A DNA stretch of 64,000 bases, from positions 32,001 to 96,000 of the IMG/VR virus record IMGVR_UViG_3300032282_005553. The stretch is one strand, 5' to 3'. The position numbers were made by a program, and so were the translations under genes. Under the pieces are notes generated by a model that was not told where the DNA came from, searched no databases, and was given only the letters and a program-made list of their open reading frames with translations. This DNA is from a virus. Below, one piece after another: positions 7,641-40,400 of the stretch. How positions within the stretch are numbered: the stretch's first letter is position 1; each line of letters begins with the position of its first letter.

Positions 7641-8789
7641 ATGGCTGACTTAATAATTAATACTCCTCCACAAAATATTTTAGTGATTAATGAATCAGTA
7701 GATGGTAGCAATAGTAGTGGTGTTATTAGTACTAATTTGCGTATAGATAATAATCTTGGTAATTATATTTCAATTATAACAGTTGATAGAGGTTTACCGG
7801 GATTACCCGGACCACCAGGCCCACCCGGACCACCTGGAACTGGTGAAAAAGGAGAAGTGGGACTAACCGGACCATCAGGATTACCCGGCAGTGGAATAAA
7901 TAAACTAACTATCAATGGTATCGAACTTACTGATATATCATCTTCTTTATCTTTGAATCCTTCTGGAACTATTCAAATAGCAAATGTCGGTAATTCCATT
8001 ACTATTGGTTCTCCGATTATCGATTACGCCCCTTCTGTTCATAATCACAATACAAATAATATTATCGGTTTAAAAGAACATATTCAAGATAATATTGGTG
8101 ATTCTATAAGTGGCTTATTAAAAAATGGTTCTAACATATCTTTAATTTATTATGATGATTTAAATACATTAACTATTAGTGTAACTGGATTGGTTATTAA
8201 TAAAGATGTTCAAGCATATAGTAGTGGTCTTACAAATATTGCATCCTTGAATATACAAGCTAATGATCTGATTTATGCAACAGGTAATAACAGATATAGT
8301 ACTACAAAAATAACCAATGTTGGTAGAGAAATTATCAGTAAAAACACTGTGGCACAACAACGAGATAGCTTAGAACTAACAAGCATGGCCACCAGTGACC
8401 CCGCAACTTTCCCAACGTTGTCTGGGAATAATGTCTTTACTGGGTCTTTTCAGTCGTTTTCTGATGGGTCATTAAGCCGATTTTCTGCATCAAATAAAGC
8501 CATAACTGCTGACTATTATACTATTTTACAAAGCGATAATGGTAAGGTGTTGGTCTTTGACTATAATAGTGTAGTTACTTGTACTGTGCCGAATAATATC
8601 AGTATTGGCTTTAATTGCTTGGTTGTTCAAATAGGAGATGGACAAGTTATTTTGCAGGGAGACCATTTGTCCAATAGGCTGGGTCATACAAAATTAGTTG
8701 GTAAATATTCTTTGGCTACTTTATTAAAGCCTATAGACGGAACCGTAATATTAAGTGGCGATACAACAAATAGAAGTAGCAGTTCATAA
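7641..8789 (+). CDS. Collagen-repeat tail fibre/decoration protein
   Basis: RBS-like AAGGA upstream; Gly-X-Y run; HxH fibre motif (VHNHNTNNIIGL); KDVQAY...LTNIASL motif typical of phage fibre shafts; short C-terminal beta domain. Confidence 0.75.
   Translation: MADLIINTPPQNILVINESVDGSNSSGVISTNLRIDNNLGNYISIITVDRGLPGLPGPPGPPGPPGTGEKGEVGLTGPSGLPGSGINKLTINGIELTDISSSLSLNPSGTIQIANVGNSITIGSPIIDYAPSVHNHNTNNIIGLKEHIQDNIGDSISGLLKNGSNISLIYYDDLNTLTISVTGLVINKDVQAYSSGLTNIASLNIQANDLIYATGNNRYSTTKITNVGREIISKNTVAQQRDSLELTSMATSDPATFPTLSGNNVFTGSFQSFSDGSLSRFSASNKAITADYYTILQSDNGKVLVFDYNSVVTCTVPNNISIGFNCLVVQIGDGQVILQGDHLSNRLGHTKLVGKYSLATLLKPIDGTVILSGDTTNRSSSS
7791..7895 (+). repeat. Collagen-like Gly-X-Y repeat (GLP GLP GPP GPP GPP GT GEK GEV GLT GPS GLP GSG)
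   Basis: Read directly from the translation; locally GC-rich DNA. Confidence 0.9.
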
Positions 8790-15400: not shown

Positions 15401-16709
15401 TCCGGCTGCAGATAGAGGTTGGGTATATAAAATTAGTGTTGCTGGTAAGATTGGTGGAGCTTCTGGACCAGTAGTAGAAGTTAATGATACAATAATTTGC
15501 GGAAATGATAGTACGCCTTCTGGTGATCATGCTACTGTTGGTAGTAATTGGCATATTTTACAAACTAATATTGTTGACTCTAGTATTCTTGTTACTGGTC
15601 CATCTACTGCCACTAGCGGAAACATAGCCTTGTTTAATGGAACTACAGGCAAAGCAATTACTGGAAGTATTATATTTCAAAGTGGAAACAATATTGGAAT
15701 TGGCAATAATTCAGCAAATGGATATGATGGATCATTATCTGTTGGTACTGGTAATTTTACTACAGTTCTTACCGTAGGAACAACAGGAGTAAGCTTAAGT
15801 GGACATACTCATACTGTCTCGAATATTAGTGATTTTGGAAGAGGAGTGAGTGGACTCATTGTTGGATCTGGAAATTATCTAACAAGATTTAACGCTTCAA
15901 ATTCTGGAATTACAAATAGCATAATTTATCAAAGCGGAGATAATATAGGTATTGGTACAGAAAATCCTGATCAATGCCTAACTGTTAATGGGACTTTCAG
16001 ATCAAGTGAGATTTTAACAAAAAGTCTTACTATTAGCGATTTATATGGGGCTAATCCTAGTTTAGACATTGATGTCTATAGCACAAATAATCATAGATTA
16101 TTAATTGATCATAGTAATGGAGTGATAAATTTATATGATACACTGGGTCTGATCGGACCTAATAACTCAGTTTATATAGGACCAAATGCTGGATCAAAGA
16201 TTCCAGCATCAAAACTTGATGTTAGTGGGATTATTACGGCGACTAGCGGAAACAGTAATCAGTGGAATATGGCATATGGCTGGGGTAACCATGCTTCCGG
16301 TGGATATGCTCAAAACTCATCTGTGGTAAAAACAACAGGAAATCAGACTACAAGTGGTATTAAAACATTTATAGATGTACCAGTATTTAGTGGTGGTATT
16401 AGTATAACATCCGCTAGTACGCCAACAGTATCCTGGATAGCGTGTTTTGATGGGGCGGATCCGACAGGTACTGCGGTACCTATACAAAGAATAAGTGTTG
16501 CTGATTTTAAAAACGATATTGGATTAGTATCTAGTAATATAACAACTCCTAGTGGAAATAGTCTCAGTCATCTGAATCTATTAACAGACTCTTTTGCCGA
16601 TAATGGAGCTGGCTCGGCCTGTCAAATTTTACAAAAAAATGCTTCAAATACTGCTTATGAATTTACTAGCAGCTTATGTAATATAACTATAGATTGTGGA
16701 ACATTTTAA
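12468..16709 (+). CDS. Long tail fibre protein with internal repeats
   Basis: AGGAG RBS; N-terminal IRIKRR...GELAY...KLYIG (Mtd_N-like); six V(R/K/Y)T(T/S)GxQxxxGxKxF repeats; HxH motifs; C-terminal IDCGTF. Confidence 0.8.
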   Translation: MSNQIRIKRRLKGSTETSLPDLLTGELAYDEVKGKLYIGESDGSLVNAKEIGGSGWLLPQITGITNNIYVPKNGDGANGTWNISVTGNAGFVTNGVYTTGNQSISGIKTFSSGLLVTTTGISNGEGFDFVGSSGNGIYVPSGTIRTKDLYVDGWLTVGTKLDILSAAEILSRGPIVYKADKYIFESGIGIFTNGLYVGPTGSPTGVSLSGHKHDYTDISNFCTGVASCVNTSLNAGSGLVLNYLEASGIYLDIGQGDGIVVSDNYISVDSTIVRTSGAQNISGVKTFYNGPLTDLTIKTNTSGTGNLVFMDGTHYGYFGWDGTNHSLIFDSSISSGSLDIRKTLKYKVPSTGTVATSIPVFTGGNPSVVSETITSRSVSDFKSDLSLNNVSNNNQMIAYAGRTSGYVPTWSGTDGTTLNSGYAVTSNLTNDTTAAYLVTASGAKSYVDAQVGGATSIVRTTGSQNISGVKTFFDTPTFNTGILSSGTNTLQVASTSLTATQFVVFTEDPSASSKAIYTRTPSQVRSDIGLGNVTNHVQMKQSSDTTVVGYVPTWNSTSGDILGSGYMVTSNLTNDNTSIYLVTASGAKSYVDAQVGGATSIVRTTGTQAIGGVKVFQNIVITGNGGSASSLVFDDNFTTASVDSLFNPRLGISTYLAADNTPAPNTELIIGYNPNGYSETTNTRLFAGQNEVGALSFETANGKVSRLVFDIRAPSASAKTTLRTKSSAGDIIIDLPNTSGTLALLANINTSQITGTLPVNKGGTNITSYSNGQLLIGSGTSLAANTLTQGDGTTITNGSGTIGIAVNNTVVRTTGNQDIVGAKQFYESSNSQVIFGTADDKIRVKAPNTDNQTYYFVGLDGGGSPPSSNSADRSLVSRSASQVKTDLSLNNVTNHVQMKQSSDTTVVGYVPTWNSTSGELLASGYAVSTNLSTNSGSSYIPRADALVSYVNSAINNGIATNDAMIFKTTLDCSANPNYPAADRGWVYKISVAGKIGGASGPVVEVNDTIICGNDSTPSGDHATVGSNWHILQTNIVDSSILVTGPSTATSGNIALFNGTTGKAITGSIIFQSGNNIGIGNNSANGYDGSLSVGTGNFTTVLTVGTTGVSLSGHTHTVSNISDFGRGVSGLIVGSGNYLTRFNASNSGITNSIIYQSGDNIGIGTENPDQCLTVNGTFRSSEILTKSLTISDLYGANPSLDIDVYSTNNHRLLIDHSNGVINLYDTLGLIGPNNSVYIGPNAGSKIPASKLDVSGIITATSGNSNQWNMAYGWGNHASGGYAQNSSVVKTTGNQTTSGIKTFIDVPVFSGGISITSASTPTVSWIACFDGADPTGTAVPIQRISVADFKNDIGLVSSNITTPSGNSLSHLNLLTDSFADNGAGSACQILQKNASNTAYEFTSSLCNITIDCGTF
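14064..14146 (+). repeat. 83-bp perfect direct repeat, copy 1 (copy 2 at 15141-15223)
   Basis: gttactaatcatgttcagatgaaacaatcttctgataccacggtcgtcggatatgttccaacttggaatagtacaagcggaga occurs identically twice in the fibre gene. Confidence 0.9.
15141..15223 (+). repeat. 83-bp perfect direct repeat, copy 2 (copy 1 at 14064-14146)
   Basis: Base-by-base comparison by eye. Confidence 0.9.
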
Positions 16710-21139: not shown

Positions 21140-21445
21140 ATGTATTATGACCCAGAAAGACTAAGATTCTATGTAGAAAAAAGAATACAAACCACCATGA
21201 TAGGCGCACTAGCTAGAATAGAAAATACATTTGGACACCTTTGGGGACAAGATAAAGAAGGTGAACTTACTCGCGAAGAAGAAGAGTTTGCTGACGCATG
21301 GGATTTTTTGAGAAACGATATATTGAATTATGGAAACAAACAAATAAGACAAGTAAAGGAAGATTTTTATAAGTATGGTGGACTTTTCAAAAATACGTAT
21401 AATTATACTTTTAAAGTAAGAAAGGATGATAGTAATGAAAATTGA
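21140..21445 (+). CDS. Hypothetical protein (101 aa)
   Basis: AAGGAAGG RBS; tight operon packing. Confidence 0.7.
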   Translation: MYYDPERLRFYVEKRIQTTMIGALARIENTFGHLWGQDKEGELTREEEEFADAWDFLRNDILNYGNKQIRQVKEDFYKYGGLFKNTYNYTFKVRKDDSNEN

Positions 21446-22313
21446 AACATTTAAAGTTAAAAAGGATGACAAGGAAATTGAATTAGCAGTAAGGTCACCA
21501 TCTCTAGAAGATCAAAGAGAGGCCCAAAAGATTTACAATCAGGCATTTACAGATGCTATAAAATCTAAATCTGTTGTTAGGGCAAAACTCGATGATTTAC
21601 TAGAAGATCAGGGGCTATGGAATCAAGAAAAGCAGGCTAAGTTCACCGAACTACAACAGCAAATCCTTGATGGAGAAAAAAGATTAGCTAAGGGCGGCTT
21701 CTCACTTAAAGAGGCCAAAAATCTTGCTATAGAAATGAAAAGAACCAGAGAAGAAATTAGAGAATTAATTAGTGTTAGAACAAGTTTGGACAATCATAGT
21801 GCAGAAGGTCAAGCTGATAATGCTAAGTTTAATTATTTAGTATCTTCTTGTGTGGTGTATAAAGAGAATAATCAGAAATATTTCAAGAATCTAGAAGATT
21901 ATATGAATAAGTCTGATGATCCTGCTGCTCTATTAGGGGCGCAAAAGTTGGCTAATATGATTTACGGATTGGATAACAACTTTGAAAAGAACTTGCCAGA
22001 AAACAAGTTTTTACAGAGATATAAATTTGTTGATGAAAAACTAAGACTCATTAATAAAGACGGTAAATTGGTCGATATCGATGGTCGATTAATTGATGAA
22101 AATGGTCGATTTATTAATGAAAAAGGAGAATTTGTCGATAAAAACGGAAATAGGGTAGATAAAGATGGAGAATATATTGTTGATTCTCAACCATTCCTTG
22201 ATGACGATGGCAGGCCCATCCTATTAGAAAATGAAACCAACAATCAACCAGTGCAAGAAACCAAGGTCGTTGAATCAGCAGAATCAGTCGAAAATAAGAC
22301 AGATTCTAACTGA
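21435..22313 (+). CDS. Putative tail assembly chaperone with C-terminal (D/N)xxGx(L/F)(I/V) hairpin repeats
   Basis: AAGGA RBS favours ATG 21435; directly upstream of TMP; tandem INKDGKLV/DIDGRLI/DENGRFI/NEKGEFV/DKNGNRV/DKDGEYI repeats. Confidence 0.55.
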   Translation: MKIETFKVKKDDKEIELAVRSPSLEDQREAQKIYNQAFTDAIKSKSVVRAKLDDLLEDQGLWNQEKQAKFTELQQQILDGEKRLAKGGFSLKEAKNLAIEMKRTREEIRELISVRTSLDNHSAEGQADNAKFNYLVSSCVVYKENNQKYFKNLEDYMNKSDDPAALLGAQKLANMIYGLDNNFEKNLPENKFLQRYKFVDEKLRLINKDGKLVDIDGRLIDENGRFINEKGEFVDKNGNRVDKDGEYIVDSQPFLDDDGRPILLENETNNQPVQETKVVESAESVENKTDSN

Positions 22314-22411: not shown

Positions 22412-25400
22412 ATGGCTAAAGGATTTAATTTAACAGCAGAAATTAATCTAAGAGGACCAGCGAACATTCGTACGGTCGTTGCCGATATACGTCGTCAATT
22501 AGGTACTGTTTCAGCGAACGTTAATGTAAAAGTGAATCCTGCATCATCCAGAAATATAGCTGGATTAAATCAAGCATTAACTAATCTTAATAATACTCTT
22601 TCTCAGACGAATGTATTGGCAACCCAAGTTACGGCATCGCTAAATGCTTTGGCAACCGCTGGCGGAACAGCATCTACATCTCTTGGAGGACTCCCAAGAT
22701 CGATGGGCTCGGCAACAGCATCTCTTAATAGATTTAATGCTAGTGCAGCGAATACAGGAAATGCTCTTAGAGTTTCTCGAACAGAATTCGAGGAATTCGG
22801 ACGTCAAGCTGCTCTAGCAGTAAGAAGATTTGCTGCATTTTCTACTGTTACTAGCGTTGTATTCAAGGTAACGAACGCTATTAGTTCAGCATATACAGAG
22901 TTCGTTGCTTTTGATAAAGAATTAGTCAGAGTGGCACAGGTTACTGATTCATCACTATCTAGTTTATCTGGATTAGAAAGAAGCATCACAAATTTATCAA
23001 CATCGCTTGGTGTATCGTCACAAGACTTAATTAAAGTTAGTAGCACATTAGCTCAGGCAGGATTGTCTGCCAAAGACACAGAAAAATCATTGAAAGCTTT
23101 AGCATTAAGTGCTTTGGCTCCATCATTCGAGGGACTAAATGATACGGTCGAAGGTAGTATTGCTCTTATGAGACAGTTCGGTATACAGGCTGGCGATCTT
23201 GAAAAATCTTTGGGTTCTATCAACGCAGTATCTGCTAGGTTTGCTGTAGAGGCCGGAGATATTATTGCTGCCATTCAGCGCACTGGTGGTGTGTTTGCTG
23301 CTGCGTCTAGAGGAGTTAGCGAAGGTAAAGATGCCTTAAATGAATTTATCGCAGTATTTACTAGTATTCGTGCCACAACTCGTGAAAGTGCAGAGACAAT
23401 TGCTACAGGCTTAAGAACAATTTTTACAAGAATACAAAGATCTAGCACAATAGAAGCACTAAAAGAATACGGAGTCAATCTTACAGATATTGAAGGTAAG
23501 TTTGTTGGAGCATATAAAGCTGTAGAACTACTTAGTGGTGGACTTGGTAAACTAGACCCAAGAGATCTTAAATTCAGTAAGATCATAGAAGAACTTGGTG
23601 GATTTAGACAGATTGGTAAAGTTATCCCTTTGATTCAAGAGTTCGCAACCGCACAACAAGCGTTGGCTGTCGCACAAAAGGGTCAGGGATCTTTAAGTAC
23701 AGACGCCGCTACTGCACAACAGGCATTAGCTATCAAGATATCAAAGGTAAGAGAAGAATTTATCGCATTAATTAGGTCTGTATCAAAAAGTGATAGTTTT
23801 CAAAATTTTATCAATTTGAGTCTTGATTTAGCAAGTTCACTCATAAAGCTTTCTGATTCTGCAAAAGTTTTACTACCAGCATTAACTGCCATTGCAGCAA
23901 TTAGGGGTGCTAGTTTTATAACGCAATTTTCTAGAGGATTTGCTGGTGGTATAAGAACTCAACGCAATAACAATGGTGGTCCGATAAGAGGTTTCGCTAC
24001 AGGGGGCTTGGTACCTGGGCGCGGTGATACAGATACATATCCCGCTATGTTAACTCCTGGTGAGTTTGTTATACGTAAAAAAGCGGTAGATAAAATAGGT
24101 GTTACTAATTTACATAGAATTAACAGGGCATCTGGAGGATATATTCCAAAAGTAAAATCAGAAAGCTCTGAACCAAAACAATATTTTGATGGAGCAAGAT
24201 CACAAAGAACAGTACAAAAAACTAAAAATAGTGGAAGATATATCGCCCCCAAAGTTAGCATACCAGAAAGAGCACACATAGGTGGTGATCTTTATATAGA
24301 TCAATCCTTTTTAGTCAGATATCTAGAGAGATACTCTGCATCAAAACTAAAAAGATCTATAGGAGAATTTTCTGGTACAAAACCAGGCATGGCAGTAGGC
24401 GTTATTGGTGGAATGAGTAAAACAGAATATGATAAATTTATCAAAGAAAAATTAAATCTGTCAGTTAAAAAAAGAATACGTCTGAATTTCCCAAGAACAT
24501 TTAATCAGGCATTAAGAGCAACAGACCCAGGTCTAGTATTAAAGAACGATCTTGTAGACATCGTATCATCTGCTCCAGACTTGACCGATCCTTTAGGCGG
24601 CTTGTCTTCATCAGAAATCAATAAAATTAAACAAAATAGTATACGAAAAATAAGATCATTAAAAGCATTACCAGCATCATCTTATCGTAAAAACTTAGGC
24701 TGGAGATCTGACACACCAGACAGTCTCAAAAATGCCCCAGCATTTGATAGCGATTATCAGCTCAATCCTTTGGCTCAAATAATAGAATCTAGTGTCAATC
24801 AGACAACCAAACAGAAACTACAAAACAATATAGATTTATTATTCAGATCATCAAAAAAAGACGCAAAATATATCTCTAGCAAAACAGGCCAAGAAAGAAC
24901 AAGAACTCAATCAAGAGAATCTGCTAGATTATCTACTATAATGAAAAAATATAGCAATGATCCTAGAAATGTGCAAAGAAGAGAAGAGTCATATTATGAC
25001 AGAGGATTAGAAAACGCAATATCTTCTTTACCAGAAAAAAGAAGTCGTAAAAAATCACAAACTACTTCCAACTACCCAAAAGATCGTATACCATTTTATA
25101 TGTTAAATGCTGGTGGTTCAGTACAAAGATTTGCTGATGGTGGAGTTACCACTAGAAATGTGGGTTATATAGACAGTGATGCGCTAAATGATCCAGCAAA
25201 TAAAGCTTTAGTAGATGAGCAAATAGAAAAACTTAAAAAACAAGGAATCAAAATAGAAGGTGGATACAGAGGCTATAAACAATATCTATCGGACCTTGCT
25301 GCAAAAGCTCGTCAAGAAAAACAAATTGGAAGATTAACATCTATCGTAGGGTTACCCGGAGCCGGTAAGAGCACCATGATGATGGGTAGTTCTCAGGCTG

Positions 25401-28400
25401 ACAATGCCACAATGAGAAAAACTACCAGATTCCCCATATTGACACCTGAAGATATAACAAGATCATCCTCAGTAATAGACGTTACAGCAAGTGTAAATCC
25501 TAAAAAAATAGATGCTTCTCTACAAGCATCAGATAGAATAGTATCATTGTCTTCATCAACTAAAGAAGAACAACAAGAATTACGCAGAAGACGAAAATTA
25601 AGAAATAGACAAATAGAGTCCGGAACCTCAACAACCGGTTTTGGTCGCAGAGCAGGAACAACGGATTCCGCCCCAGTAGATAGTGGATATATTGAAGCTA
25701 TTTTACAATCAGAAATTAAAGACCCCAAGAAGATAAGAACACTTGGAGTGACACCAAAAGGATTTAGAACAAAAAGAGGAGATGATATACCAGAAATATT
25801 AAAGGAAAAAATTAATCTATATTATGGTAATTTTGGACCAACAACAGCAGGCCACGTTGCTGCTCAACAACAAGGAATGCAAGAATCCGCTAAAAGAGGT
25901 ATTTCAAAATCAATTGTGGCTGTTGGGATAGATACTCCAGTTAAATCTGGAGATGAGCACTCTACAAGATCAGCATTATTGAGCCAAAAAGAAAGAATTG
26001 CTTTAGCTAAAAAAGCATTCCCAGAGTCGTCTATAACCGCAGCGACAAAAGAAACCTTTGGTTTCGGATTACCATCTCTCTATGAAATAGAAAAGAGTGG
26101 AACAGACAGAAGAAGATTTGTTAAGCCATTGGGTGGTAGCACAGCCACAGTAGGAGACGAAAAAGGATCAAGTTCTTTACAAAAATATTTAGATGCTGGA
26201 TTCGATCCTAAAGATATATTAACTCTTGAAAGATTGGGTGGTATTAGTGGTACTAAAGTTAGAGAGGCTCTATTAAAGGGTGACACCAAAACCCTAAAAA
26301 AATTAACAAGTCCAGCAGTATTCGATATTCTTAGTAGAAATTCTGAAGTTTTTCAAAGAAGATCTAGTATTTTACCAAAAATTATGGAGCGTATAGGAAC
26401 TAGAGCAACTTCATCACTAGGAGCAATAGAGGCCGAACTTGCAAAATATCCAGGTAGACTAACTCCCAAGATCAAAGCTGAACACCCAGAATACGAAGAG
26501 ATAGTAGATAATCTTAGAAAACAAAGAGATAAAATAAAAGCAAAAGCTGAATCCCGTTCGGGATCGACAATGAGAAGATTATCTAGAATGTTTCCATCAG
26601 CATACGGTATTGATATTGGAGATACTCAAAAGTTTATGGCTGGAGAAGCAGTAAAAGCTAGGGTCGGCAGGAAAAAAGCAGAAAGACTACATGATACTGA
26701 CATTGGCGAGGCTAGAACAAAGACCGCTAGCGAAATTATTTCAGAATTGACCATCTCCAGTGCTCAACAAGTATTAACGGAAGCTGGTGGAGCTAGAGTT
26801 AATGCGAATACATTACTTAGAAAATCAAAACTTAATCCAGATGAGCTTAGACTAAAAGACAGTATTTTATCTGCATATGTCACTAAAGTTAATGCTAAAG
26901 CTAAAGAGGCAAGAGAAAGAGACTTAGGAGCAACAACATCCGCACAACAAGCTAAGACTTTATTTGGTGTCATAGGAATGTTTGGAAATGGTTTTCCGGC
27001 TGAAAATATAACTTTGGAAGATGGACTTAAAAAACCCACTACTGTTAGAGTATTTGGCGCTGTTTTAGATAAGAATAAAGCTGAAAAAGATGCTAGATTA
27101 GAACAAAGAAAGAATAGATTAAGCGCTATAAATACTAAAAGAACTATAAAAGGTAAATCGAGACTGTCAGACTCAAGAGCACAAGATATTGAAAATGCTC
27201 CCATGGCATCTGCTCTCAGCAAAGAGTATTTACAAGAAGATTTATCTGGAATTACAAAAAGGACGGGTATCACACCACAAATGACTCCTGCTCTTAAAAA
27301 ATCTTTAGCTGATAGTCAAGGATCTAAATTTCAAAATGATGTTACTGCAACCTTAATTAAAACTCCAGAAGGTAAGGAAATATCCGATTCTATGATGAGA
27401 GATAATCAGCAAAGAAGCATAGACTTTCCATATGGGATTGGTATGTCTATGGCCAAGAATTGGTTTAATAATGCTTTATTAGCGAATATACCAGTTGATG
27501 CCAAAAGAACACTAACAGGACCAAGAGGAAAATTACTTAGTAATATCACTAATTATTTAAAAACTAAAGGATTTGCTATAGGTGGACACATACCAGAAAA
27601 TAATGAAGATTCGGTTCCAGCACTATTGACACCCGGAGAATTTGTGATCAATAAAAAAGCAGCCCAAAGAATAGGTGCTGCTAAATTACATCAGTTAAAC
27701 AGAGCAGATAGAATAAAGGGTTTCAATAAGGGTGGTGCTGTTGGACCACAAAGATTTTTCCTAGGAGGAGGAGCATCTGCCAGACCAGGAGATAGTGCTA
27801 ATATAAATAATTTAATGGTTCCTGCTAGTTCTATCAATCAATTGAGACTAATAGTAGATGCTCTTGAAGAACTAGGAGTTAGTGCTTCAAAATCAGCAGA
27901 TCTACTTAAAAAAGGAGGAAGAGCTAGTATACAAGCAGCACATGCCGCATATGAAGCTGATATAGTAAGACTACGTATTGCTGGTGCTCCCATACAAACA
28001 GTAATTAATGCTGAAACACAATTAGCAAATATGAGGCAGCAAGCAACGAGACAAGTTGCAGCACAAAGACAACTTTCTGGAGTTGGTGGATCAAAACTAC
28101 AAAGAATAGATACGGCAGCCCAAAACAATATTCAGAGAATGGTCCAGAGAGCTCAAAATGCTGGAGTAAATCTTGATGAAAATCAAATGCGTCGCATTGA
28201 AGATTTAGGATATAGAAGAGCTGCTACGAGAGCGAGAATATCTCCAACACAAATGGCAGGATTAAATGGTAATGATTTACGTCAATTTATTAACAGTGCC
28301 ATGGGTGATCCTAAAACTTTTCAGCAAATGAATAAAACTTTTGAGACACAGAGAAAACAAGAAATATTAAGACAAATAAATATTGAAAGAGGAGTTACTA

Positions 28401-31400
28401 ACGATAAAAAAGAAATAGCAAATAGATCCAAAGAAGCCAGAATGCTCGCGAAGGAAGAATCTGATGCTCGTAGACAGATACTAAACCAAACTAGAGGATC
28501 GTCCGGTCCGGGCTCTGCTAGATCGCAAAGATTTAATCAGGCAATGTTTGGAGCTAGTTTTGTTTTACCAATGGTAGGTCAAATGATGGGTGGAGATCCA
28601 TCAAATGCAGGATCATCTGCTCAAGCTGGTCAGATCGCCGGTGCTCAAGGGGCCGTAAACATGGCTAGTACAGGAGCTATGGTGACGAGCATGGCCGCCA
28701 CAGGACCAATTGGAATAGCGCTAGGTGCTGCTGCTACGGCCGTTGCGACTTTTGGACAAGCCACTATGGATGCCCATAATGCAGTAATTGATTTTGAGAA
28801 ACAATTAGTTGCTAAAAAAGTAGAACATGCAATAGCTGATATCAATAAAATGTTTGAAAAATTAGCTAAAGATCTTAGTAATGTAGATATTCAAAATTCT
28901 ATAACCAAAAAATTAAACGAAGCCACCTCAATCTTAATTGATAATATGGAGTTCCAAAGAAGAACTGCTAAAATTTATTGGACAAATATCATTGATATGA
29001 TGGCAAATAATAATAATGCATCTAATGAAAGAAGTAGGATATTAGAAAAACATGGTACAGGGGCGTATCTGAATTCTACAGCGTTTGGACAAAATCCGGT
29101 TGGAATGACGCTTAATGCAATAGCTTTTGGTATACCTGATGCTATATACAAAGCATTTAATGGCAAAAGCATGTTTGCTGGATCAGAAGAGAAAGCGAAT
29201 CAAAATAGATACGAATATACCAAAATGATGATACCTGACCAGGCTAGAGAATCAGCTAGAGGGTTCGCTGACCTTGCCGATACTGCTACAAGATTAATAG
29301 AAGAAAAAATTAGATCAGGAATGAATGTTGATGATATCATTAATAATCCAGACTTTGAAAAATATGGAAGAAATTTGGCATTGGCTAATTCTTCGGTACA
29401 AGAACAAATTTTGACTCTTAGAAATAGTATTCTTGTTGCTGATGATGAGAAAAAAGCTAGAGAAGAATCAATTATCAAAACATATGCTGAAGAGGAAGCA
29501 AGAAGAAGAGCTTCTATTGTAGCAAGAGAAATCGAGATAAGAGAAGCTAAAAAAAGTAGCGCTAAAATGTCCAGATCTCTAGAAAGAATGTTCCAAAATA
29601 TGGAGCAAGCAATAAATAGAACAAATTTCGGACTGCAACGAATGGCTGATGAGTTGGATCTTGTAACATCTTCATTAACTGGACAGGCCAAGGCCGGAGA
29701 GGGAGTACTAAAAAGCATCAATGTACTACAAAATCCAAGAGCATACTCCTCAAGAGACTTCTCTGAAGCAAGTAATCAAGCGGCATCATTTTTTGGCGAT
29801 AATTCTGGATTAATGAATGGATTATTAACTTTAGGTAATGATATCGAAACAACAATTATGGGTACTATTAGTAGGACCCTATCGGAAAATGAAGGAGACA
29901 ATCAAGAAAAAATTTCTGTTGCTATTGAAAGGGCTGTAAAAACTAAATTAGCTGATCTTGCTTTGCCAGAAGACGTTTCTGCTAAATTAGCTAGAGAAGT
30001 AAAAAGAGCTCTTGATCAATTAAGAAAAGAAGGTGATCAGAAGATAGATTTTAGTCAACTAGAAGAACGCTTACAAGATATCAGTAAAGTTTTTGATAGT
30101 GCAAAAAGAGCACAAGAAATAGCCATAAAAGCTCTGGAAAACTGGAATAGTGCTCTTAATGCCTATGCAGAGAGTATGAATAGAATTGTCGAACTACAGA
30201 TCTCTTATCAAGCTAGAGCTAGAAAATCTACCGAACTACAAACGAATGCACAACTAGAACTTGCTAAAGTGCTCGGTAGAGATGTTTCTGTATCAGATAT
30301 TAAAGAAAAAAGAGACTCACAAATTCGTCAACAGACCGGTGGTTTAACATCTCCAGATAGTATAGCAAAAAACTTTGCTAACCTAGAAGAAAAACGCAGA
30401 CAACAAGAAGCCGCTATTGATGTAGCAAGAAATCAAGGAGCAAGAGGAGCCGAAGATTTCCAAAAGATGCAAAATAATTTGGCTAAGACCAATGTTGCTT
30501 TAAGAGAAAATTATGATGCTCTTAAAAATCTTGCTGAAAATTCTGATGTCGCTGCTGCTGCTCTCAATAAAGTACAAGAAGCTCAACAAAAACAACAAGG
30601 AAAAGTTAGTTTTATAGAAAAACTTGTGACCAGTACTCCAGACGAATACAACGCATTAAACAGAGCTGTTATTAGATTACAACGAAATATGAATGGCCAA
30701 ATGAATTCAATCAATAACAGTGTTGGTGCTCAAAAAGCATATGCAGAAGCTTTGAATGAAGGAGCTAGTGCTGCAGAAGCCATGAGAGCAGCTCAAGCGG
30801 CATTTGCTAATGAAAGAAAAGATACACTATCAGCATTAAATGATTTGTTACCATTCCTTGGCAATGGACAACAAGCTAATCAAATAAGAGCAAATACATT
30901 ACAATCTATGCTAAAAGAGAGTGGACTCGGCGTCTCTCCTCTGATGCAACAAATTTTAGATTCTTTAAGGAACCCTGAGCTTGATCCAGAAACACAAAAA
31001 GCAATTCAACTATATGAAGATGCTAATCAATTACAAATAGCAGCAAATAATTCTTTAGTAAAAATAGAACAAGCATTAGCTGATGCCACAGCAGATAAAG
31101 CAGCAAAAGCTATAGCATCTGCTTTAGAAAAAACAATATTGACTTTTAAAACAGCAGAACAACAAGATATTAATAATGGAGTTGCTCAAGGTAGAGCATT
31201 TGGTGGTATTATCTATGCTTCAGAAGGAATGTTTACTCCCAGAGGTACAGATACTGTCCCCGCTATGTTAACGCCGGGAGAATTTGTAGTTAATAAAGCA
31301 GCAACAGCTAAAAATTTAGGATTATTACAAAATATTAATAATAATCATTATAGCACTGGTGGAAAAGTTAATTATTATGCAGCCGGGGGTTATGTTAGCA

Positions 31401-34400
31401 GCATACAAAAAGAAAATAAAAGAACTGAAGAAAACTTTAAAGAAACACAGGATAAATTTTTAGATTTAGATGATCCAGGACTAAGAGAAGTACTATCAGG
31501 CTCTGAGGGATCAAAGATTTATCAAATTCCTGGAAGATTCATTAAGGTAAAAGAGGATGCTCTAGCCCAAACTCCTGATCGTAATGCGTATAATGCCGGG
31601 GCTATGCCAAGATGGGATCTGAGTAAGATTTTTGACGCTCATCAGGATGGAAATATTGTTCCGGGTTATTCTATGGGTATGCAGATGAAGCGTACTTCAA
31701 CATTTCTTTATGGCAATATAGATTGGCCATTAATATATCCAATACCTGGAGTAACAAATACAGAACCAGTAGAAATTGGTAATGGTTCTTTTATTGGAGG
31801 CTTGACTGAAGATAAAAGAATATCGCTTGCTACTAAGCCATATGTTGTATCTGATGAAAAAAAATATTTAGAACAACTTCAAAGACTAAAAATTACACCT
31901 GAATTTATAAAAAAGAAATTTGCATGGATCTCTAATGCTGCTCATCCAGTAAGACAGGCAATAGATGGAGATATATTAGATTATCCCACTGATGTGACTC
32001 CACAAAGAAATGAACCCAGAGGAATAGTGCCATACCAAGCAATAAGAAGCAGTATGCTCTATTCGACTGATGCAGGCACAGAATTGAATGCCCAGAATAA
32101 GATTTATGCAAGAATATACCACAATCCTGAGAAAAAAATGAATCGTGCAGTCGGCGCTGGGGCAACAAATATGCCGACATTCGAAACCGGTGGACCATTT
32201 GAACCAACGCACGATGGATATTTTAACATGGAAGCAAGAACTTTCGATATAGATAAAAAGAAAGTTATCCCATCTGCTGATGCTCAAAAAATTGGTAAGT
32301 ATAATCAAGATCTGTATCAAATTTTAGTAAAAACATACAAAGCCCTAGTTCCTGGGGCCGGTCAACCACGACTATCAGATCTACCTCTATCTGACAGCGG
32401 TGGTAAAATTGGTGTTTTTGATAGTTTTCAAAAACAACTAGCTAATTTATATAATGGAATAACTCCTTATGAGAATTTTATTGGAGAAGCTTTAGATATT
32501 CTAGATATCGATGAAAGCGCTAAGGCTAAAAACTTTACCGTAATTTCAGCTGAAGCTGCTACACAACAGATGGTCCAGGATTATATTGAGAAACAAGTAA
32601 AGAATAAAGGTGGTAAACAGCCATTTTCTGGTGGAAATCCCATATCTATAGGAATAGCAGGAGCGCCACCCGGACTTGACTGGGTTACAGAAGATCTTTT
32701 TGACATAAAAGAACTTGCCACAGGCAACACAAAAGAATTCCCTGTCCTTATAAATATTTTACCTTCTGAAATATCAGAAGAATTTGAAAAACGAGCAGCA
32801 GAAGCGACAAAAGGCTCAAGTCCTATCAAAACATCTTTATTTAACCACGATGGTGAATTATCTTTAGATTTGGCTGGTGGCAAAAAAGCAAAATTTCCAT
32901 ATTTTTCCACATACACCAAATATACTGGCCCACTTTGGGACACTGCTACTAATACATATTCTGATAAAAATAATATTAAAGATTTCTTTTTAGCTAATCC
33001 ATTAGATGGAAATACTCCAGCAAATATTTTTAAAGGATTAGATATTAGTAATAATAGATTATTTGATAAAACAAAACCAATAGATTTTGATGATCGCGGA
33101 AATGTATCACTATCATACGACCAAGCTAAACTAACAGAATTGATCGATCTATACAGAGTAGATAAAGATAAAAGAGAAGCAGACAAGATAGATGCAGCAT
33201 CAATGGCACTAAAAGCAGCATCAATAAGATTCAAATTGAATAAAGATGTTGGTCCATTAGGAGCTTTAATCAAAGCAGATGCTAAGGTTGGAGATAATGA
33301 TATTTTTTCAGGATTTACCGACCAGGCCGATAAATCCATGTCGATTGGAGATTTTCTAATAGAAGCTGCTCAAAAATATGCTGAACAAACAACAGAAGAA
33401 GCTAAAACAGCTACCGGTGAAGTTGCAGATTCTAAATTTAATAAAGAAGGATTTGCAGATCAAAAAAAGCCATTTCTTGATACATTAAAAGGATTAACGC
33501 TTGGTTCATTACGAATTTTTGGTAGAAGACCATTACCAGGATTTCCACGAGCTTGGTTTTATGCTTTAGGTGGTGGCAGGGCATACTCTTTATTAAAAAA
33601 TAATAGAATGACCCTACCAATCGGTAAAAATATAGCAACTTATTTAACTGGTATGCTAGCCATGAATTCTGGACCCGGAGCACAAGCTAGCACATTAGCT
33701 TCTATGTCAACAAATTTGAGAGCTTTTAATTATTTCGAAGATTTACGTACTTTAATTCAGGGAGCATTTTTAACCTATCAACAATTATCTCAATCTGATA
33801 CTAGTAGTATTGTTCAATTGCTTAAAAATTCTAGAGATGCTTTTGGTAATCTTGATTTGTCAACAGATGCTGTAGAAGATATATTCAGAAGCCTAGGAGC
33901 CACGCAATCTTTTAATGCTGCTGGCTCTCAGGCTTTGGGAGGAGATTATCAGAGAAATCTTGCTAATCAGCTCGCAGGATCAAAAATAAGAGTTGTAAAA
34001 CAAAGTGGAAAAATAGAAGATGTCGATGCTGCTAATATACCATACAAAAATTATACTGATCTTATGGCATTGGCACTTAATCCTTACAATGAATATACAT
34101 CTAAAGATATTAGAAGTGGAATATTTGATAAATTAACGCAAGATATATCAACGGCTACCAATCAATATGGTGGTCCGATGTTTTCTCAAAAGACAAGAGC
34201 ATTTTTACTAAATAATCTATCTACATTAAAAGATTGGTATGCTGGAAATGGTAATTGGCTAGGACAAGATTATTTATTTGATAAAGTTGCAAATCCTGAC
34301 TCCAAAGACAGAGGAGACAAATTCAAGCAAAATCTTGCCATTGGAAATAATCTATGGTCAGAGGCTAATATTGCCCATCGCAATTTAGGTGCGGCAGTTA

Positions 34401-37400
34401 AGTTTGGTGGAGATTTGCCACACGAAGAGTGGTTTAATAAAAGAATAGAAGCAGGAAATTTTGCTACCGGCGGTATGGTTTATGCTCAAGATGGATCTCT
34501 TATAAACTTTACTCCACGCGGCACAGACACTGTTCCGGCAATGTTGACTCCTGGAGAATTCGTTGTCAATAGAGCAGCAACCGCCAAGAATCTACCTCTC
34601 TTAAAACAAATAAATGGCAATAGAGGCTATAGCAGAGGAGGGGTTGTTAATTACCTACAAGATGGTGGCCAAGCCGAAGGCGCACCAGAATTTGATCTTG
34701 CAACTACCACCGAATATAGACCAGAAAATAGTTTTGGAAATAGAAGTATTTCAACTTTATCTAGAATACAATATGAGTCTAGATATGGTGTTCCCGGAGT
34801 CAGAGATAATGTAAAAATGATCTCTGAAGAAATATATAAAACACTCAGAGACAGATCGGCACAGGAATCAACACTAAGACAAGCTGGTACTCCAATTTTT
34901 TATGATGATAATAGTACAAGATCTAAAAGACAACAAGCAAACAAATTAAAATTAAATAAAAAAGAATATACAGAATTGTCTATTGCTGAAACCGAAAGAA
35001 GAATACCGCTATTTCAAAGACAAACAGAAGAATATTATCCAAATGGAACAAACTTTGATCATAGTGTTTTTGATAGAAAGATGCTAGATTTCCAAGGTTT
35101 GCCAACTATTAACTATTTAAATGCAGATATTAGATCACATGGTCAAAAAATTGCAGCAATGAAAGATGCTGTTGGAGCCAAGGAAAATGGATTCCCTGAT
35201 TTATTAGCCAAATATTTATTAGGAATGAAAGATTACGAAAGCACCTGGGCTAGTGTTGGACTAAGCTTTGCTCTAGATCTACAGAATATAATGCCAACCC
35301 TTAGTGGAGGTGCTAGTCAGGCTCTTATAGGAAAAGGTTTATCGTGGTTAGGCAAAAATACAGGACTTAAAAAGGCTATAACAATAGCTATGCAGAAAGG
35401 TAAATCAGCATTAAGTTCACTAGATAAAATTGCATTTAGACAAGTTGAAAAAGGAATAGATGAAATTCCTATTAAAGATTTGGGATTAGCAGATTTACCA
35501 GACTCTAAAACAGCACAATCGCTGTCTCCTAGTCCCACAAAGATACCCAGAGGAGGAGAAAGAATATCATTTGATGACAAAGCACTACAAATGTTTTTCC
35601 GTTCTGTTCCGACTAATGTTAAGGATTTTAAAAAGTCTTTCTGGCAAACAGTTTCTTCAAAAGGTATTTTTCAACAAGTTTCCGATTTTACCAGATTTAT
35701 TGGACTACCAGACAACGAAGCATTGCTTGGTGTTCCAGCTGCTATAGATATCAAACATCTTGAACCTGGCATCAGAGGTAGATTTGATTCTAATCTCGCC
35801 AGATTGAGTACTCAAGGGGTATCCGGAGCAGCATCAACAGGAAGAGGACTCGCTTCTGTACAACCATATGCAGAAGTAAATACTTTGTATCATGAGTTAG
35901 CTCATCAATTTTTAAATGGAATCAGAACACATCATCCTAAAGCATGGGAATTCTATCAGGAACGTGTTCAAGATATGTTTACTGATCACAGAAGTTGGAA
36001 TAATCTTGCAAATGCTTTTGATGCTATTGGAGGAAGCTATAGAAGTGAAGATGTTTTATATGGTGCTAGTTATAAGCTAAGAGATTTACAAAAAATATTA
36101 GATCAACATCCTGGAGACAAAGATCTAATAAGATTAGTTAGTAGAGCTACAAAACATAAAGATGCCGGTAGAGCTAGTTGGGCGAGCATAGATGAAGAAG
36201 TAACAGATGTATTGAGATCCAAGAGAGGATCACAGTACCTTGAGACTATGCAAAATAATGGATTAGAAGAATTCTTAACAGTAGTTGTTCAGAACGCTGG
36301 ACGACTTGACAAACAGATGAGACAAGCACTGGACACAACATTAGAAGCCATATTTCATAACTCTGGCATAGCAAGAGACAGAGGATTATTTGATAATTTT
36401 TATGCTGAACTTGATAAACCAACAATTTTCCAAAGAATAAAAACCGCAATATCTGCTAGGCTTAGTAGGCCAAAAGCAGCAACAAGGGTTCCAAAACCAC
36501 CAAGACCTCAAAAGCCAAAAACTAAAAATACTCCGGATAACGATATGATCGCTGGTCGTATTGGTCCAAAAAAATCTAAAACAAAATCAAAAAATAAAAA
36601 GGAGAAAAGAAGATGGCCGTGGATTATTCCTATTCCTATTTTTGGTTTGGGTGCGGCCGGGGTCTACGAGGCTACTAAGCAACCTTCTGCCCCTCTTTTA
36701 GAAGAAGGAGAGGGATTGGGCGGAGAATTTATTGGCGGAGGTGAAGGCGGCGGAATGATGCCAGAGATTACCTCTCCTAATCCAGCAAGAGAAGGCGCTA
36801 TGGGTGCTGCCGCGACACAACCAGGAGCAAACGGTGGACAAAATGGTGTTGGTCCTTCATTTCCGAATGAAGCCAGAAATAATGCTCAAGCAGCAGCACA
36901 AGAAGAAAAAGCTAGAAAATCCGGATGGAAAAAATCTAAAAAAGAAAAACCTTCGTCGTCACCTTTACCCGAATCTTCTGATTTTCCTGAAGCTATTCCT
37001 TTTTCTCCTTTAGAAGATACCAATGAAGAAACATCCTCTAATTTATTGAATAGACCGGGCGAGCCACTTAGAAGAGCTAAAGGAGGCATAGTTTATGCAT
37101 CAAATGGCTCATTGATTAATTTTCAACCAAGAGGCACAGATACTGTTCCGGCGATGCTAACGCCAGGAGAGTTTGTAGTTAATAAAGCAGCAACACAAAA
37201 GAATTTGCCAGCATTACAAGAAATTAATAGCAATACATATATGGCAGATGGTGGACTGTTAGGAAGACCAAAGGTCGTACAAGGGGTTACTCTAAATCCA
37301 AGAGATAAACTAACGCCAAGATTTAATAATATAGACTCTGCTATTAGTACTAGTAATAAAAACTTAAATACAGTATTACAGAATGAAAACTCACAAAATA

Positions 37401-40400
37401 ATAAATTAAATGAATTGCTTATAGATAGTAAAAATAACAAAAAGGTATTATCTCAAATTAATACCAAAACAGACTTTACTAATTCAAAAGTTAATGATAT
37501 AGCTAGAAACACCGGATCTTTAACAGATACGATCAATGCTTTTTGGCAAATGCTTTCCGGTCCCGGTCCTAGCGTGGAGATGCCTCCTAGGGTAATAAAT
37601 CGCAGCACGGGCGGCATAATATATGCTAGCGAAGGAACTCTTGTTCCTTATTCTCCAAAGGGAACAGATACAGTTCCTGCTATGTTAACTCCGGGAGAGT
37701 TTGTAGTAAATAGAGCTGCTACTAGCAAGAACTTGAGCCTATTAAAGAATATTAATAATGGATATAGTCAAGGTGGGATAATATATGCTGATGATGGAAT
37801 AAAAGTTCCAGGAACAGGAGACTTTACAACAACAGTAAGCGGAGCATCAACAAATAATATACAATCAAGTCAAACATTATCTGACAAAGAAATTGAATTA
37901 GAAAGACTCAGACAGTCCTTTGAACAAGCAAGAGCTAGATTCGAAAGAGAAAAAGAACAAAGAGATAGAATACAATATTCTCTCGCTTTAGTTAATGAAG
38001 GATTATCTAAATACAAAAATCAGAGAGGTGCTGCCTTAGATAGATTATTAGGCATAAGTAATCCATCGAACATATTAAATGATGAAAAAAGCTCGCTACA
38101 AAGAAAATTAACTTTTAATTTACTTGGTGTTGATAATGACGTCGGAGCATGGATTGCTAGAGCAGAACTTTTAAGTAAACAGCTTGCTGAAACTGGTGTT
38201 GGAATAACAGGAGCAACAGTTGCCGGATCGGCCGGTGCCGTAGCAGGCGGCGGAGTTGCTAGTCCAGTGACATCAGCAACATTGGGAACAGCGGGATATA
38301 TAGTTTCTGTAAGTGCATATAAAGATTTTCTAGGCGAACAATATAAGGAAAGAATGGATCTTTTACGACAAGCATTTCCTGGTCAATCTACGGTGACAGA
38401 TTTGGCCCCTGCTGTTATGGGAGTTTCTTCATTAGCCAAAAATGCTTATACTAACCTTGGGGCTATAGGTATAAAACAAGCCGGAAAAGAGATATCTTCG
38501 GAAGTTGCTGGAGACGCTATTGGTACAATATCAGCAGCTTTTGCAACTGGCGAACCCATCAGCTATAGTGCTCAAGATGCTATTTTGGCTTCATTAGGCA
38601 TTAAGCTTAGCGGACCGAGCAGATCAATTAGTACCACTAGATCCAGAGCATCAGAACAGCCGACAGCATCTTCTACAAAATTGTCACAACAGCCACCTCC
38701 GCTACCGAGTACTTTAGGATCCATTTTTGCTTCATATAAAAAAGCAATATCTAATAAAATAGATATGTTATTTAATAGATCTCCCGTAGCAGTACATGAT
38801 CAAGCACTTAAATATTTCAAAGAAAGAGGAGCAGTAAATTTTGATGAGATTAGAGAACACTTACGAGGAGAAGTTAAATCATCCAAAGGAGTTGCCGTTA
38901 GTGTCGGAATGATAGCTAAAATGCTCGGAGTAGAACCTAAATATCTTATAGCAGAAGATATGAGAGCGGTTAGAAAAACTATCGAAGGTGCCAGTGGATA
39001 TTATAGTGATTTTACTAGTCGTGATGCTATTAAAGTTGATGAGAACACCGGACTTGTTGCTGGAACTTTTAGTAGGGAACCGGGCGATATTGATCCGGGC
39101 GCAATATTAGCATTAAATAATGATAATAAAGTAAATAATAGTATTGTTTGGCATGAGATCATGCACTCCATGCTTACTAGAATGGGTAAAAATGGATATG
39201 GAAGATTTATCAAATTAATGCAAGATAATCAAAAATCTGTTTTGGGATATATAACTGAACGACCAGATCTATTTCGTAGTTATGGTATAACAGATATTGC
39301 AGATGGAGCACATTATGTAGGAAGAGCTCTTCAAGATATGCCACAATGGTCCTTTTTAAAGAGCGCAGCAGAGATGGCAAGTGATGATGATATTAAATAT
39401 GCCATAGCTCAAAAACAAGCTTACTTACAAAAATTAAGTACTGAAGATCCCGGTAGATTGTCTTCTCCTGATATATTTAATGATATAGTTCCAGGAACAA
39501 TGTTGAGAGTTTCACATATTACAGGCATGGAATCTGCAGAAAATCACTATGGTGGTATCAAAAATGCAATTAAATATGTTGAAGCAGTAATCAAAAGCGG
39601 TCGAGGTGTCGATCCAGCATTCCTTGCACATGCAGGGGATCATAATGCTAAAATCATGGATATATTGAGTGATCTTAATATTATTGAAGAAAGATCTGCT
39701 TTCGATTGGACGAAAGAATATGGGTATGAAGAATTTGCGACTCAACTTTTACAAAATTTTGATAGATTGGATCCAAAAGGACTGTCTTTCTTAAGTGATA
39801 TTATCTCTTCAGTATACGATGATAATAGAATCGCTGCTCTTAGGGATCCAAAAATTGTTTATGCTCAACTACAAAAAGTATTCAAGGGTTCTGGTTCAAA
39901 TATAGAGAAAGAACAATATAATGGATTAGAAACTCCTGCTTTATCTAGTGGAGGAATAATAAAATCTTTATACGCCAGTACTGGTAAATTGATTTCATAC
40001 AAGCCAATAGGTACAGATACTGTGCCAGCAATGTTGACTCCTGGCGAGTTTGTTGTTAATGCACAGGCTACAGCTAAAAATCTACCATTATTAAAATCTA
40101 TCAATGAAGGTAATTACAAGAGCAGTGGAGGAGTAGTATATCTTGACAATGGCGGAGTCGCCGACGAAAAAGATCTTGCTGCCGCTAATGGAAGAAATGG
40201 TTTCGAAAGAAAAATGGCAGTTGGAGCAAAACAGAGAAATAAACTCCAAAAAATTGCTGCAAAACCTGATGATACTGGTACTTTATGGGTATTTCTCAAT
40301 CCATCTCCTATGGTGATAGATAAAGAATTAGTTGCTTCAGGATTTACTGCTCTGAGCTTGTTGAAAAAAGATCTTACCTATACTGATGTTAATGAACCAT

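Follow-up and report, generated by a model that had tools for sequence, protein, structure and literature searches.

The DNA analysed here, called the window below, is a stretch of 64,000 nucleotides that corresponds to bases 32001-96000 of a linear IMG/VR virus record of 136,889 bp (IMGVR_UViG_3300032282_005553), whose completeness is estimated at 92% and whose G+C content is about 34%. It contains a single open reading frame (ORF) of 6532 amino acids (22412..42010, + strand) that codes for a giant tape measure protein (TMP) and holds, embedded in its sequence, a cassette in which a predicted P-loop kinase-like domain precedes a predicted nucleotidyltransferase domain of the HUP fold (25145..26632, + strand; TMP residues 912-1407). 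The sequence confirms the ORF as a TP901-type TMP. PF10145 (PhageMin_Tail, TP901 type) scores 83.9 bits at residues 191-395, where the cut-off is 33.2 (1.8e-23); the match falls close to the start of a very long and mostly helical ORF, within a block of tail genes. The N-terminus also matches 11 PHROG tape-measure families, down to 6.1e-23, and residues 1-540 retrieve by tblastn annotated TMPs, SPbeta YomI included, as distant relatives at 24-28% identity. In the databases the relatives are either 'hypothetical' or carry the name 'TP901 family phage tail tape measure protein'; a Sphingobacteriia metagenome-assembled genome is given as the origin of one of them, and the phage lineage probably infects Bacteroidota.

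Eight copies of a motif, ...DTVPAMLTPGEFV... (repeat family D3, 'PAMLTPGEFV'), punctuate the TMP ORF. The cassette sits in the head-proximal fifth of the protein, between copy 1 (...DTYPAMLTPGEFVI..., 24028..24095, + strand) and copy 2 (27604..27671, + strand), which form the upstream and downstream boundaries of a cargo block. It extends over 496 codons without a stop, numbered below as block residues 1-496, and is delimited both as a unit of homology and in the structural model. A phmmer search with the cassette against 1.84 billion representative proteins gave 95 matches at E<=1e-3, with 88 of them at E<=1e-10 or better and 72 at E<=1e-30 or better. Most of them, including all the stronger full-length ones, align over about block residues 2-492, and nearly all are proteins of 1500-7279 amino acids. 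The 72 full-length segments, together with the copy of the window, make up the alignment of 73 sequences from which the conservation counts were taken; overall identity of these relatives ranges from 29 to 61%. The results confirm the cassette as a real, conserved two-enzyme unit that is more than a product of chance.

Three motifs read by eye in a first-pass annotation of this DNA were recovered at the positions given there: GLPGAGKS (25349-25372), GNFGPTTAGH (25826-25855) and GGISGTKVR (from 26237). The Walker A motif, GLPGAGKST (block residues 69-77; 25349..25375, + strand), conforms to GxxxxGK[ST] in 69 of the 73 sequences, and its lysine is present in all. The HIGH-type motif GNFGPTTAGH (residues 228-237; 25826..25855, + strand) is of the TxGH variant, with TTAGH at 25841, and its key positions are nearly constant (G228, P232 and G236 in 72/73, T234 in 69/73, H237 in 73/73); the pattern [TH]x(1,2)GH is found in 68/73. 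The third motif, ISGTKVR (residues 367-373; 26243..26263, + strand), is preceded by two glycines from 26237; S368 and R373 are present in every sequence and T370 in 72, and S[GAS]TxxR occurs in 72/73. The following residues do not vary in the alignment: K75, D103, R168, H237, R275, R284, Y348, R363, S368, R373 and R406. A sub-clade formed by P0072, P0074, P0077 and the viral locus L028 (10001-11542) departs from this scheme, with GAAANRKS or GAAGNRKT replacing the Walker A glycine while PxTxGH and ISGTxxR are kept; judged by these sequences, the kinase half seems to be decaying and the transferase half retained.

With the cassette, no match at E<=1e-3 was obtained by tblastn against 50,697 phage records, so that no isolate in that collection carries it. 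NCBIfam offers no family for the copy of the window, any family matching at most 2 of the 22 members, and PADLOC gave no match below E 0.01. The single PHROG row obtained with the cassette, a terminase (E 0.0073), was discarded as spurious.

The copy of the window was aligned with 21 translated viral loci and modelled with AlphaFold2. The model of the whole block has two domains, with a mean predicted local distance difference test score (pLDDT) of 88.1; the predicted template modelling score (pTM) of 0.81, obtained for both domains together, suggests that their mutual arrangement is fixed. The N-terminal domain (residues 1-216; 25145..25792, + strand; pLDDT 93.5 when modelled on its own) places the Walker A loop within a predicted fold of P-loop kinase type, as the first-pass annotation had expected, and has a putative N-terminal extension like that of zeta toxins. 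The gonococcal zeta-1 toxin was its top match in four structure searches. In the VIA-wide comparison with the domain model, 162 residues of 6epg_B were aligned over residues 4-216 (Z 7.1, root mean square deviation (rmsd) 4.3); a second comparison gave Z 7.9 with 6eph_B, so that the domain model scores Z 7.1-7.9 against this toxin, and the full model raised the value to Z 8.2. Foldseek scored the same toxin with a probability of 0.98 (E 5e-3). Adenylate, thymidylate, dephospho-CoA, polynucleotide, gluconate and pantothenate kinases occupy the next rows (Z 4.5-6.4), and the neighbours in the ESM Atlas are AAA_33/Zeta_toxin proteins with scores of 0.84-0.87, below the lead threshold of 0.9. The model thus assigns the domain, with moderate confidence, to the P-loop kinase-like proteins, with the zeta toxins as its closest relatives. 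UvrA, suggested as a relative by a profile search of PDB sequences, was rejected, the match being restricted to the 20 residues of the Walker A motif.

Two further elements of the domain may contribute to a kinase site. Asp103 (25451..25453, + strand), an aspartate in all 73 sequences, follows strand 91-97 in the model, the strand after the P-loop helix, and is the candidate catalytic base; it would correspond to the catalytic Asp of zeta toxins. The Arg/Gly-rich segment of residues 153-173 (25601..25663, + strand; R153, G167, R168 and G171-T173) resembles a lid, with R153 in 71/73 and R168 in 73/73, and would act as the lid of the kinase. A DxD motif at residues 10 and 12 (25172-25180, 'GYIDSD'), just after the first strand, has each aspartate conserved in 72/73 and recurs as 'YD.DN' in the free-standing homologues described below; it may bind a metal or the substrate in the kinase domain.

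The likeness to zeta toxins brings in the explanation that the cassette is a host-poisoning or envelope-weakening kinase. The N-terminal domain would phosphorylate a UDP-activated wall precursor, as zeta, PezT and ng-zeta-1 do, or NAD, as AvrRxo1 does, and its product would obstruct some pathway of the host as the phage enters, whether locally or globally, the transferase making or recycling the nucleotide-sugar substrate. The zeta-1 toxin tops every search that covers the domain and is the sole match spanning residues 4-216 with the N-terminal extension; the pSM19035 zeta toxin (1gvn_B, Z 5.5) and AvrRxo1 (4z8q, Z 5.2) match as well, and weakening of the wall has been proposed for zeta-like kinases within injected polyvalent proteins in the available part of a survey of these (PMC5512222). 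The explanation is nevertheless improbable. Z stays below 8 with the domain model at identities of 8-15%, none of the 22 members matches the Pfam Zeta_toxin family (PF06414) at E<=0.01, the invariant transferase domain would be left without a necessary role, and a host killed on entry would be a loss to the phage, except where the effect is mild.

The second domain (residues 217-405; 25793..26359, + strand; VIA-wide and Foldseek) is predicted to have the Rossmann-like HUP fold of the cytidylyltransferase-like enzymes, on which the first-pass annotation had made its reading depend. The best structural match of residues 220-405 is a phosphopantetheine adenylyltransferase (PPAT; 4nah, Z 14.0, rmsd 2.9, 145 aligned residues, 19% identity), followed by the archaeal nicotinamide mononucleotide (NMN) adenylyltransferase (NMNAT) 1f9a (Z 13.5), NadM 2qjo (Z 13.5) and NadD 4rpi (Z 13.3). 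By the own rule of the structure-comparison tool these four values are a tie, and hence the fold does not name the substrate. NadR (8x7f, Z 11.3; 6gye, Z 10.2), FAD synthetase (2x0k, Z 10.7), TmcAL (5y0r/5y0n, Z 10.6, 212-216 residues aligned over 221-496), HldC (5x9q, Z 10.0) and 3gmi (Z 9.1, 202 aligned) also match. Foldseek against the PDB gave 51 matches at E<=1e-3, headed by NadM at 2.3e-5; all listed rows belong to this superfamily, and seven of the top ten are PPAT. The TxGH form of the HIGH motif and ISxTxxR are shared with PPAT. This variant, together with the identities (19-22% versus 12-16%), tilts the assignment slightly towards PPAT. The group moved by the transferase would be a nucleotidyl and most likely an adenylyl group.

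By sequence the transferase is a divergent branch of the HUP class. PF01467 matches it with 17.0 and 18.5 bits, below the cut-off of 21, and only four of the 22 members match at E<=0.01; no other PF01467-like stretch was found in a search of the genome. The sole solved relative that is significant by sequence is the uncharacterised MJ0951/UPF0348 protein (3gmi), matched at the ISGT motif with E 6.1e-6 when the family profile was used, the other matches in the PDB being sub-significant (PPAT chains, E 0.1-2). PF16581 (HIGH_NTase1_ass) reached 25.7 bits against a cut-off of 26.7 over profile positions 53-108 of 205, and 15 of the 22 members match it at E<=0.01, all below the cut-off. The domain continues into a long C-terminal helical hairpin (residues 400-487; 26342..26605, + strand), composed of helices 400-432 and 448-482 in the model and covered by the TmcAL alignment. 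Long helices match many structures and inflate the aligned length, so the TmcAL alignment over the hairpin is a weak indication.

These sequence matches lend themselves to an RNA-directed alternative, in which a polynucleotide kinase (PNK) of PNK/KTI12 type and a TmcAL/UPF0348-like HIGH enzyme would act together on the ends of tRNA or other RNA, either in repair after the attack of anticodon nucleases or in RNA modification. It could account for the significance of MJ0951/UPF0348, for the 15 members matching PF16581, for TmcAL giving the longest alignment, for the polynucleotide kinases that match the N-terminal domain (4gp6, Z 5.3; Pnkp1 4xrp, Z 4.8; PNKP 3zvl, Z 4.7) and for the many invariant arginines. 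However, the PF16581 matches remain below the cut-off and are limited to the ISGT region, which is common to the whole superfamily; the Z value of TmcAL lies below those of PPAT and NMNAT, its additional aligned length being due to long helices; and the polynucleotide kinases rank below the zeta toxin and the adenylate kinases. An action on RNA is accordingly very improbable.

The first-pass annotation had also placed the block inside a TMP, and its distribution bears this out. A scan of viral contigs with the cassette as a single sequence gave no match, and a scan based on an alignment recovered 28 loci. In all 28 a single open frame, 2718 to more than 5410 amino acids long (many frames run off the locus), encloses the cassette at 599-1654 residues from its start (three loci are cut at the left end); the Walker A motif is intact in 27 and PxTxGH in 28. 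Together with PF10145 and the 11 PHROG families, these loci fix the block within the TMP. Among proteins of at least 3000 amino acids (n=111) the cassette begins at a median of 0.18 of the protein length. The search with the cassette had yielded 94 proteins besides that of the window; when the remaining parts of the TMP were compared with these, its N-terminus was present in 67 and the repeat motif in 63, while the sub-domain that precedes the cassette was found in 4 and the one that follows it in 3. The cassette often adjoins the repeat in the relatives, on either side (module 838-1319 followed by repeat 1319-1362 in P0003; repeat 521-581 followed by module 588-1067 in P0042), and in several of them (P0025, P0027 and P0039 are examples) a zincin-peptidase cassette stands directly beside it, before or after. 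With flanks that are not co-conserved and neighbours that vary, the cassette is a discrete, movable unit.

It is also an optional one. A search with TMP residues 1-600, restricted to proteins of 3592-11431 amino acids, found 481 at E<=1e-10, of which the best 120 were examined with the cassette profile. The cassette is present in 52 of these 120, and in 32 of the 100 that had not been found earlier through the cassette itself. After the near-identical P0097, the four nearest N-terminal relatives (68-72% identity) are devoid of it. The bearers have a median length of 5890 amino acids versus 4774 for the non-bearers. In P0119 and P0120, close TMPs without the cassette, Pfam detects PF10145 only. 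Being optional, the cassette is unlikely to serve tail assembly, and an accessory function directed at the host is favoured. Some giant TMPs of the family (P0125, P0177, P0148 and P0151 among them) carry matches to EF-hand (PF13202, PF13405, PF00036) or SHD1 (PF03983) domains, which suggests further kinds of cargo cassette.

The unit exists, moreover, outside the TMPs. P0095 and P0116, free proteins of 537 and 514 amino acids, comprise the whole unit, and their sequences are 50% identical from end to end. The 'YD.DN' strand at the N-terminus, the Walker A motif and the 'AFGRS' segment that resembles a lid are all retained, as are a canonical HxGH, the motif MSATRVR and the helices at the C-terminus. 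The two proteins might be fragments of gene calling, yet both begin with Met and align end to end. An alignment of the two found no locus in viral and metagenome contigs. P0070, P0073, P0074 and P0091 were considered as stand-alone forms and rejected, their short matches starting in the middle of a domain as expected for probable fragments. P0090 (327 amino acids) has a dNK-like start, about 80 residues nearly identical to the P-loop core of the cassette and a truncated chorismate-binding domain (PF00425, 3e-72), and is a probable assembly chimera.

This distribution bears on the explanation that the cassette has no action in the host and serves the TMP as a nucleotide-binding spacer, plug or folding aid. 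The narrow tail lumen leaves little space for globular domains carried by a TMP, and the Walker A motif is degenerate in some copies; both would fit such a non-catalytic role. The role is hard to reconcile with catalytic residues that are invariant across 73 diverged copies, with a unit that occurs as a free protein, and with the 68 of the best 120 giant TMPs that lack the cassette and so show that tail assembly does not need it. We therefore give it little credence.

The interpretation that we favour, as on balance a probable one, is that the cassette is catalytically active, enters the cell with the TMP ahead of the DNA, and performs adenylyl transfer and phosphorylation on one nucleotide-linked small molecule. 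The TMP would be expelled before the genome, and the cassette would reach the cytoplasm and refold there. Since ATP is required by the two enzymes alike and occurs in the cytoplasm alone, they would act in that compartment. Two consecutive ATP-dependent steps may then take place on the same molecule. By adenylyl transfer, one step would yield a pyrophosphate-linked product; in the other a hydroxyl of the same molecule would be phosphorylated. P-loop kinases and HUP adenylyltransferases are combined for consecutive steps on one metabolite in NadR/NARP3, CoA synthase, FAD synthetase, HldE and PAPS synthase; NadR/NARP3 lead from nicotinamide riboside (NR) through NMN to NAD+, and CoA synthase from phosphopantetheine through dephospho-CoA to CoA. 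Several such two-step enzymes are present in the lists of structural matches. The two-step proposal is based, in addition, on the zeta-type kinases acting on pyrophosphate-linked nucleotide sugars, which are products of transferases of this class. Catalytic activity, cytoplasmic delivery and the coupling of the two steps are what we infer here.

A number of points weigh against this interpretation. No structural match of the N-terminal domain model reaches Z 8, and values in this middling range may reflect a common arrangement only; Foldseek on the domain alone gave no match at E<=1e-3, and in Pfam and NCBIfam no kinase family matches more than one of the 22 members at E<=0.01. The domain could thus be a generic P-loop NTPase. 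The sub-clade with a degenerate Walker A motif indicates that the two activities are not always coupled. A virion would supply only a few copies, possibly not enough to alter a pool of metabolites. Finally, the lumen of a tail tube is about 4 nm wide and should not accommodate three TMP copies that each carry a folded 55-kDa domain, so the cargo would have to travel unfolded or be handled otherwise.

A special case of catalytic delivery is the rebuilding of NAD+, which the first-pass annotation had put forward as one possible purpose of the block, beside the nucleotidylation of a host target at injection. The kinase would convert NR to NMN and the transferase NMN to NAD+, the cassette being a counterpart of NadR and of the NARP3 enzyme Bas30_86 with reversed order that is delivered ready-made and pre-empts NAD+-depleting defences. 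NMNAT, NadM, NadD and NadR are among the best matches of the transferase (Z 13.5, 13.5, 13.3 and 11.3/10.2), NadM tops the Foldseek list, and Bas30_86 (9x6f) is matched by sequence at the HIGH motif, though below significance (E 0.057). A phage enzyme that joins a NadR-like kinase and an NMNAT has been described, in the available part of the report, as restoring NAD+ against Sir2-HerA (PMC13464706). On the other side, PPAT fits the transferase at least as well, with Z 14.0, 19% identity and the same TxGH variant. Among the matches listed, the kinase is closer to zeta toxins than to ribosylnicotinamide kinase (RNK): human NRK1 (2p0e; Z 4.5, rank 48) is the sole RNK among the top 50 rows, which include no NadR kinase domain. 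Residues 1-216 with the P-loop precede the transferase at 217-405, an order opposite to that of NadR, as the first-pass annotation had seen. NARP3 needs PnuC and NARP2 needs Nampt, and neither PnuC (PF04973) nor Nampt (PF04095) gave a match at E<=1 in the 136,889-bp record, with its estimated completeness of 92%. By general reasoning, NAD+ tends to be depleted at a later stage of infection, at which free enzymes could already be expressed. The NAD+ proposal did not gain from the analysis and is unlikely, and the finding as it stands adds no fourth pathway of NAD+ reconstitution.

A broader idea, to which we hold only tentatively and which we regard as possible rather than probable, is that giant TMPs are modular vehicles for protein injection. 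Swappable cassettes would be inserted between the 'PAMLTPGEFV' joints; one of them would be the ATP-dependent pair of zeta-like kinase and adenylyltransferase, which would refold on the far side of its passage and act in the cytoplasm. Seconds after entry it would produce or modify a metabolite linked to a nucleotide: a cofactor, or an analogue that is toxic or that imitates an immune signal.

Other features were observed in the TMP and around it. The sub-domain that follows the cassette (TMP residues 1408-1730) has no Pfam match and is common to just 3 of the 94 relatives; at 27416-27511 (TMP residues 1669-1700) it displays the pattern 'SIDF...(about 20 aa)...VDAKR', which is by eye like that of PD-(D/E)xK nucleases. 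Two HExxH motifs lie in separate cassettes of the TMP, at 35891 and 39152 (TMP residues 4494 and 5581), and one of these cassettes has a weak SprT-like match in Pfam (E 0.0087); the peptidase cassette that adjoins the kinase-transferase unit in several relatives is related. Directly upstream of the TMP, two overlapping ORFs on the + strand (21140-21445 and 21426-22313; 101 and 295 amino acids), without family match, occupy the position of a tail assembly chaperone pair. Further upstream, an ORF of 1413 amino acids (12468-16709, + strand) contains three stretches of BppL_N, the N-terminal domain of a lower baseplate protein (PF18338, 2.1e-22), and tail-fibre-like ORFs are found at 7641-8789 and 10590-12422; receptor-binding genes upstream of the tape measure gene are an unusual order.

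Comparison with known systems shows that the parts of the cassette have precedents. Its transferase is like CoaD/PPAT in fold, 4nah being the best match, and in ISxTxxR, although by sequence the cassette has no significant match to PPAT (E 0.1-2). CoA synthase, too, pairs a HUP transferase (PPAT) with a P-loop kinase (dephospho-CoA kinase), the two acting there on one molecule, and dephospho-CoA kinases match the N-terminal domain (2if2, Z 5.7; 1jjv, Z 5.1; mouse CoA synthase 2f6r, Z 4.8). Unlike these enzymes, the cassette has the kinase first, a helical hairpin of about 90 residues and a place within a virion protein, and its kinase is closer to the zeta toxin than to CoaE. NadR and the NARP3 enzyme Bas30_86 (PDB 9x6f/9x6h) likewise join a HUP adenylyltransferase and a P-loop kinase in one chain. 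The available part of the report on NARP3 of Enterobacteriaceae phages describes a NadR-like enzyme that, with a PnuC-like transporter, restores NAD+ against Sir2-HerA, and its residue numbers place the NMNAT of Bas30_86 before the ribosylnicotinamide kinase (PMC13464706). The cassette, part of a virion protein, has the reversed order and a kinase that is closer to zeta toxins than to RNK among the matches listed, whereas Bas30_86 is made after infection as a free enzyme of the cytoplasm. The zeta toxins (ng-zeta-1 6epg/6eph/6epi; 1gvn; AvrRxo1 4z8q) are P-loop kinases in which an extension comes before the strand of the Walker A motif, an arrangement that the N-terminal domain may share (156-162 residues aligned), and their substrates, pyrophosphate-linked nucleotide sugars (UNAM and UNAM-4P in PDB titles), are typical products of nucleotidyltransferases. 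The cassette kinase differs from them in being fused to a transferase and a TMP, and stays below Z 8 with the domain model at 8-15% identity.

Carriage of enzymes by TMPs is known too. SPbeta YomI, a TMP annotated with a lytic transglycosylase, is a distant relative of the present protein through its N-terminus. To our knowledge, the enzymes borne by TMPs are cell-wall hydrolases, which work without ATP and outside the cytoplasm. A literature search at result-list level found no ATP-dependent metabolic enzyme pair, kinase or nucleotidyltransferase within a TMP in print. The polyvalent proteins, large virion proteins built from cassettes that are thought to enter the host with the DNA, resemble in this the TMP that bears the cassette, and in some of them kinases that resemble zeta toxins are joined to MuF domains of the virion (Iyer et al. 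2017; PMC5512222). In the available part of that survey the terms 'tape measure' and 'HUP' are absent by term search, and the nucleotidyltransferases described are of the Pol-beta type only (PMC5512222). A putative cytidylyltransferase of T4-like cyanophages, T4-GC190, has been detected in virions by proteomics, as the available part of the study reports (PMC3037559), and searches of BFVD by fold retrieve the 'cytidyltransferase' proteins of S-PM2, S-RIM2 and P-TIM68 (E 3.5e-4 to 4.4e-3) together with many uncharacterised phage cytidyltransferase-like proteins. Unlike the cassette, the T4-GC190 proteins are separate proteins of myoviruses rather than parts of a TMP, with no P-loop kinase partner shown, and their similarity to it is no closer than that of the rest of the superfamily.

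Therefore, while cargo-bearing TMPs and bifunctional kinase/adenylyltransferases are both known, the cassette family and its location in a TMP were not found described in the literature searched. The cassette adds to the HUP transferase and zeta-like kinase families a new branch that is well folded and has free-standing members, and it bears on the fate of the TMP after ejection and on very early counter-defence. If the interpretation favoured here is true, a part of the TMP reaches the cytoplasm and refolds there, phages can bring metabolic enzymes in finished form through the tail before any gene is expressed, and the list of 'pilot' proteins widens. If giant TMPs are indeed injection vehicles, the cassette would be the first pair of metabolic enzymes to pass into a host by way of the lumen of a phage tail.

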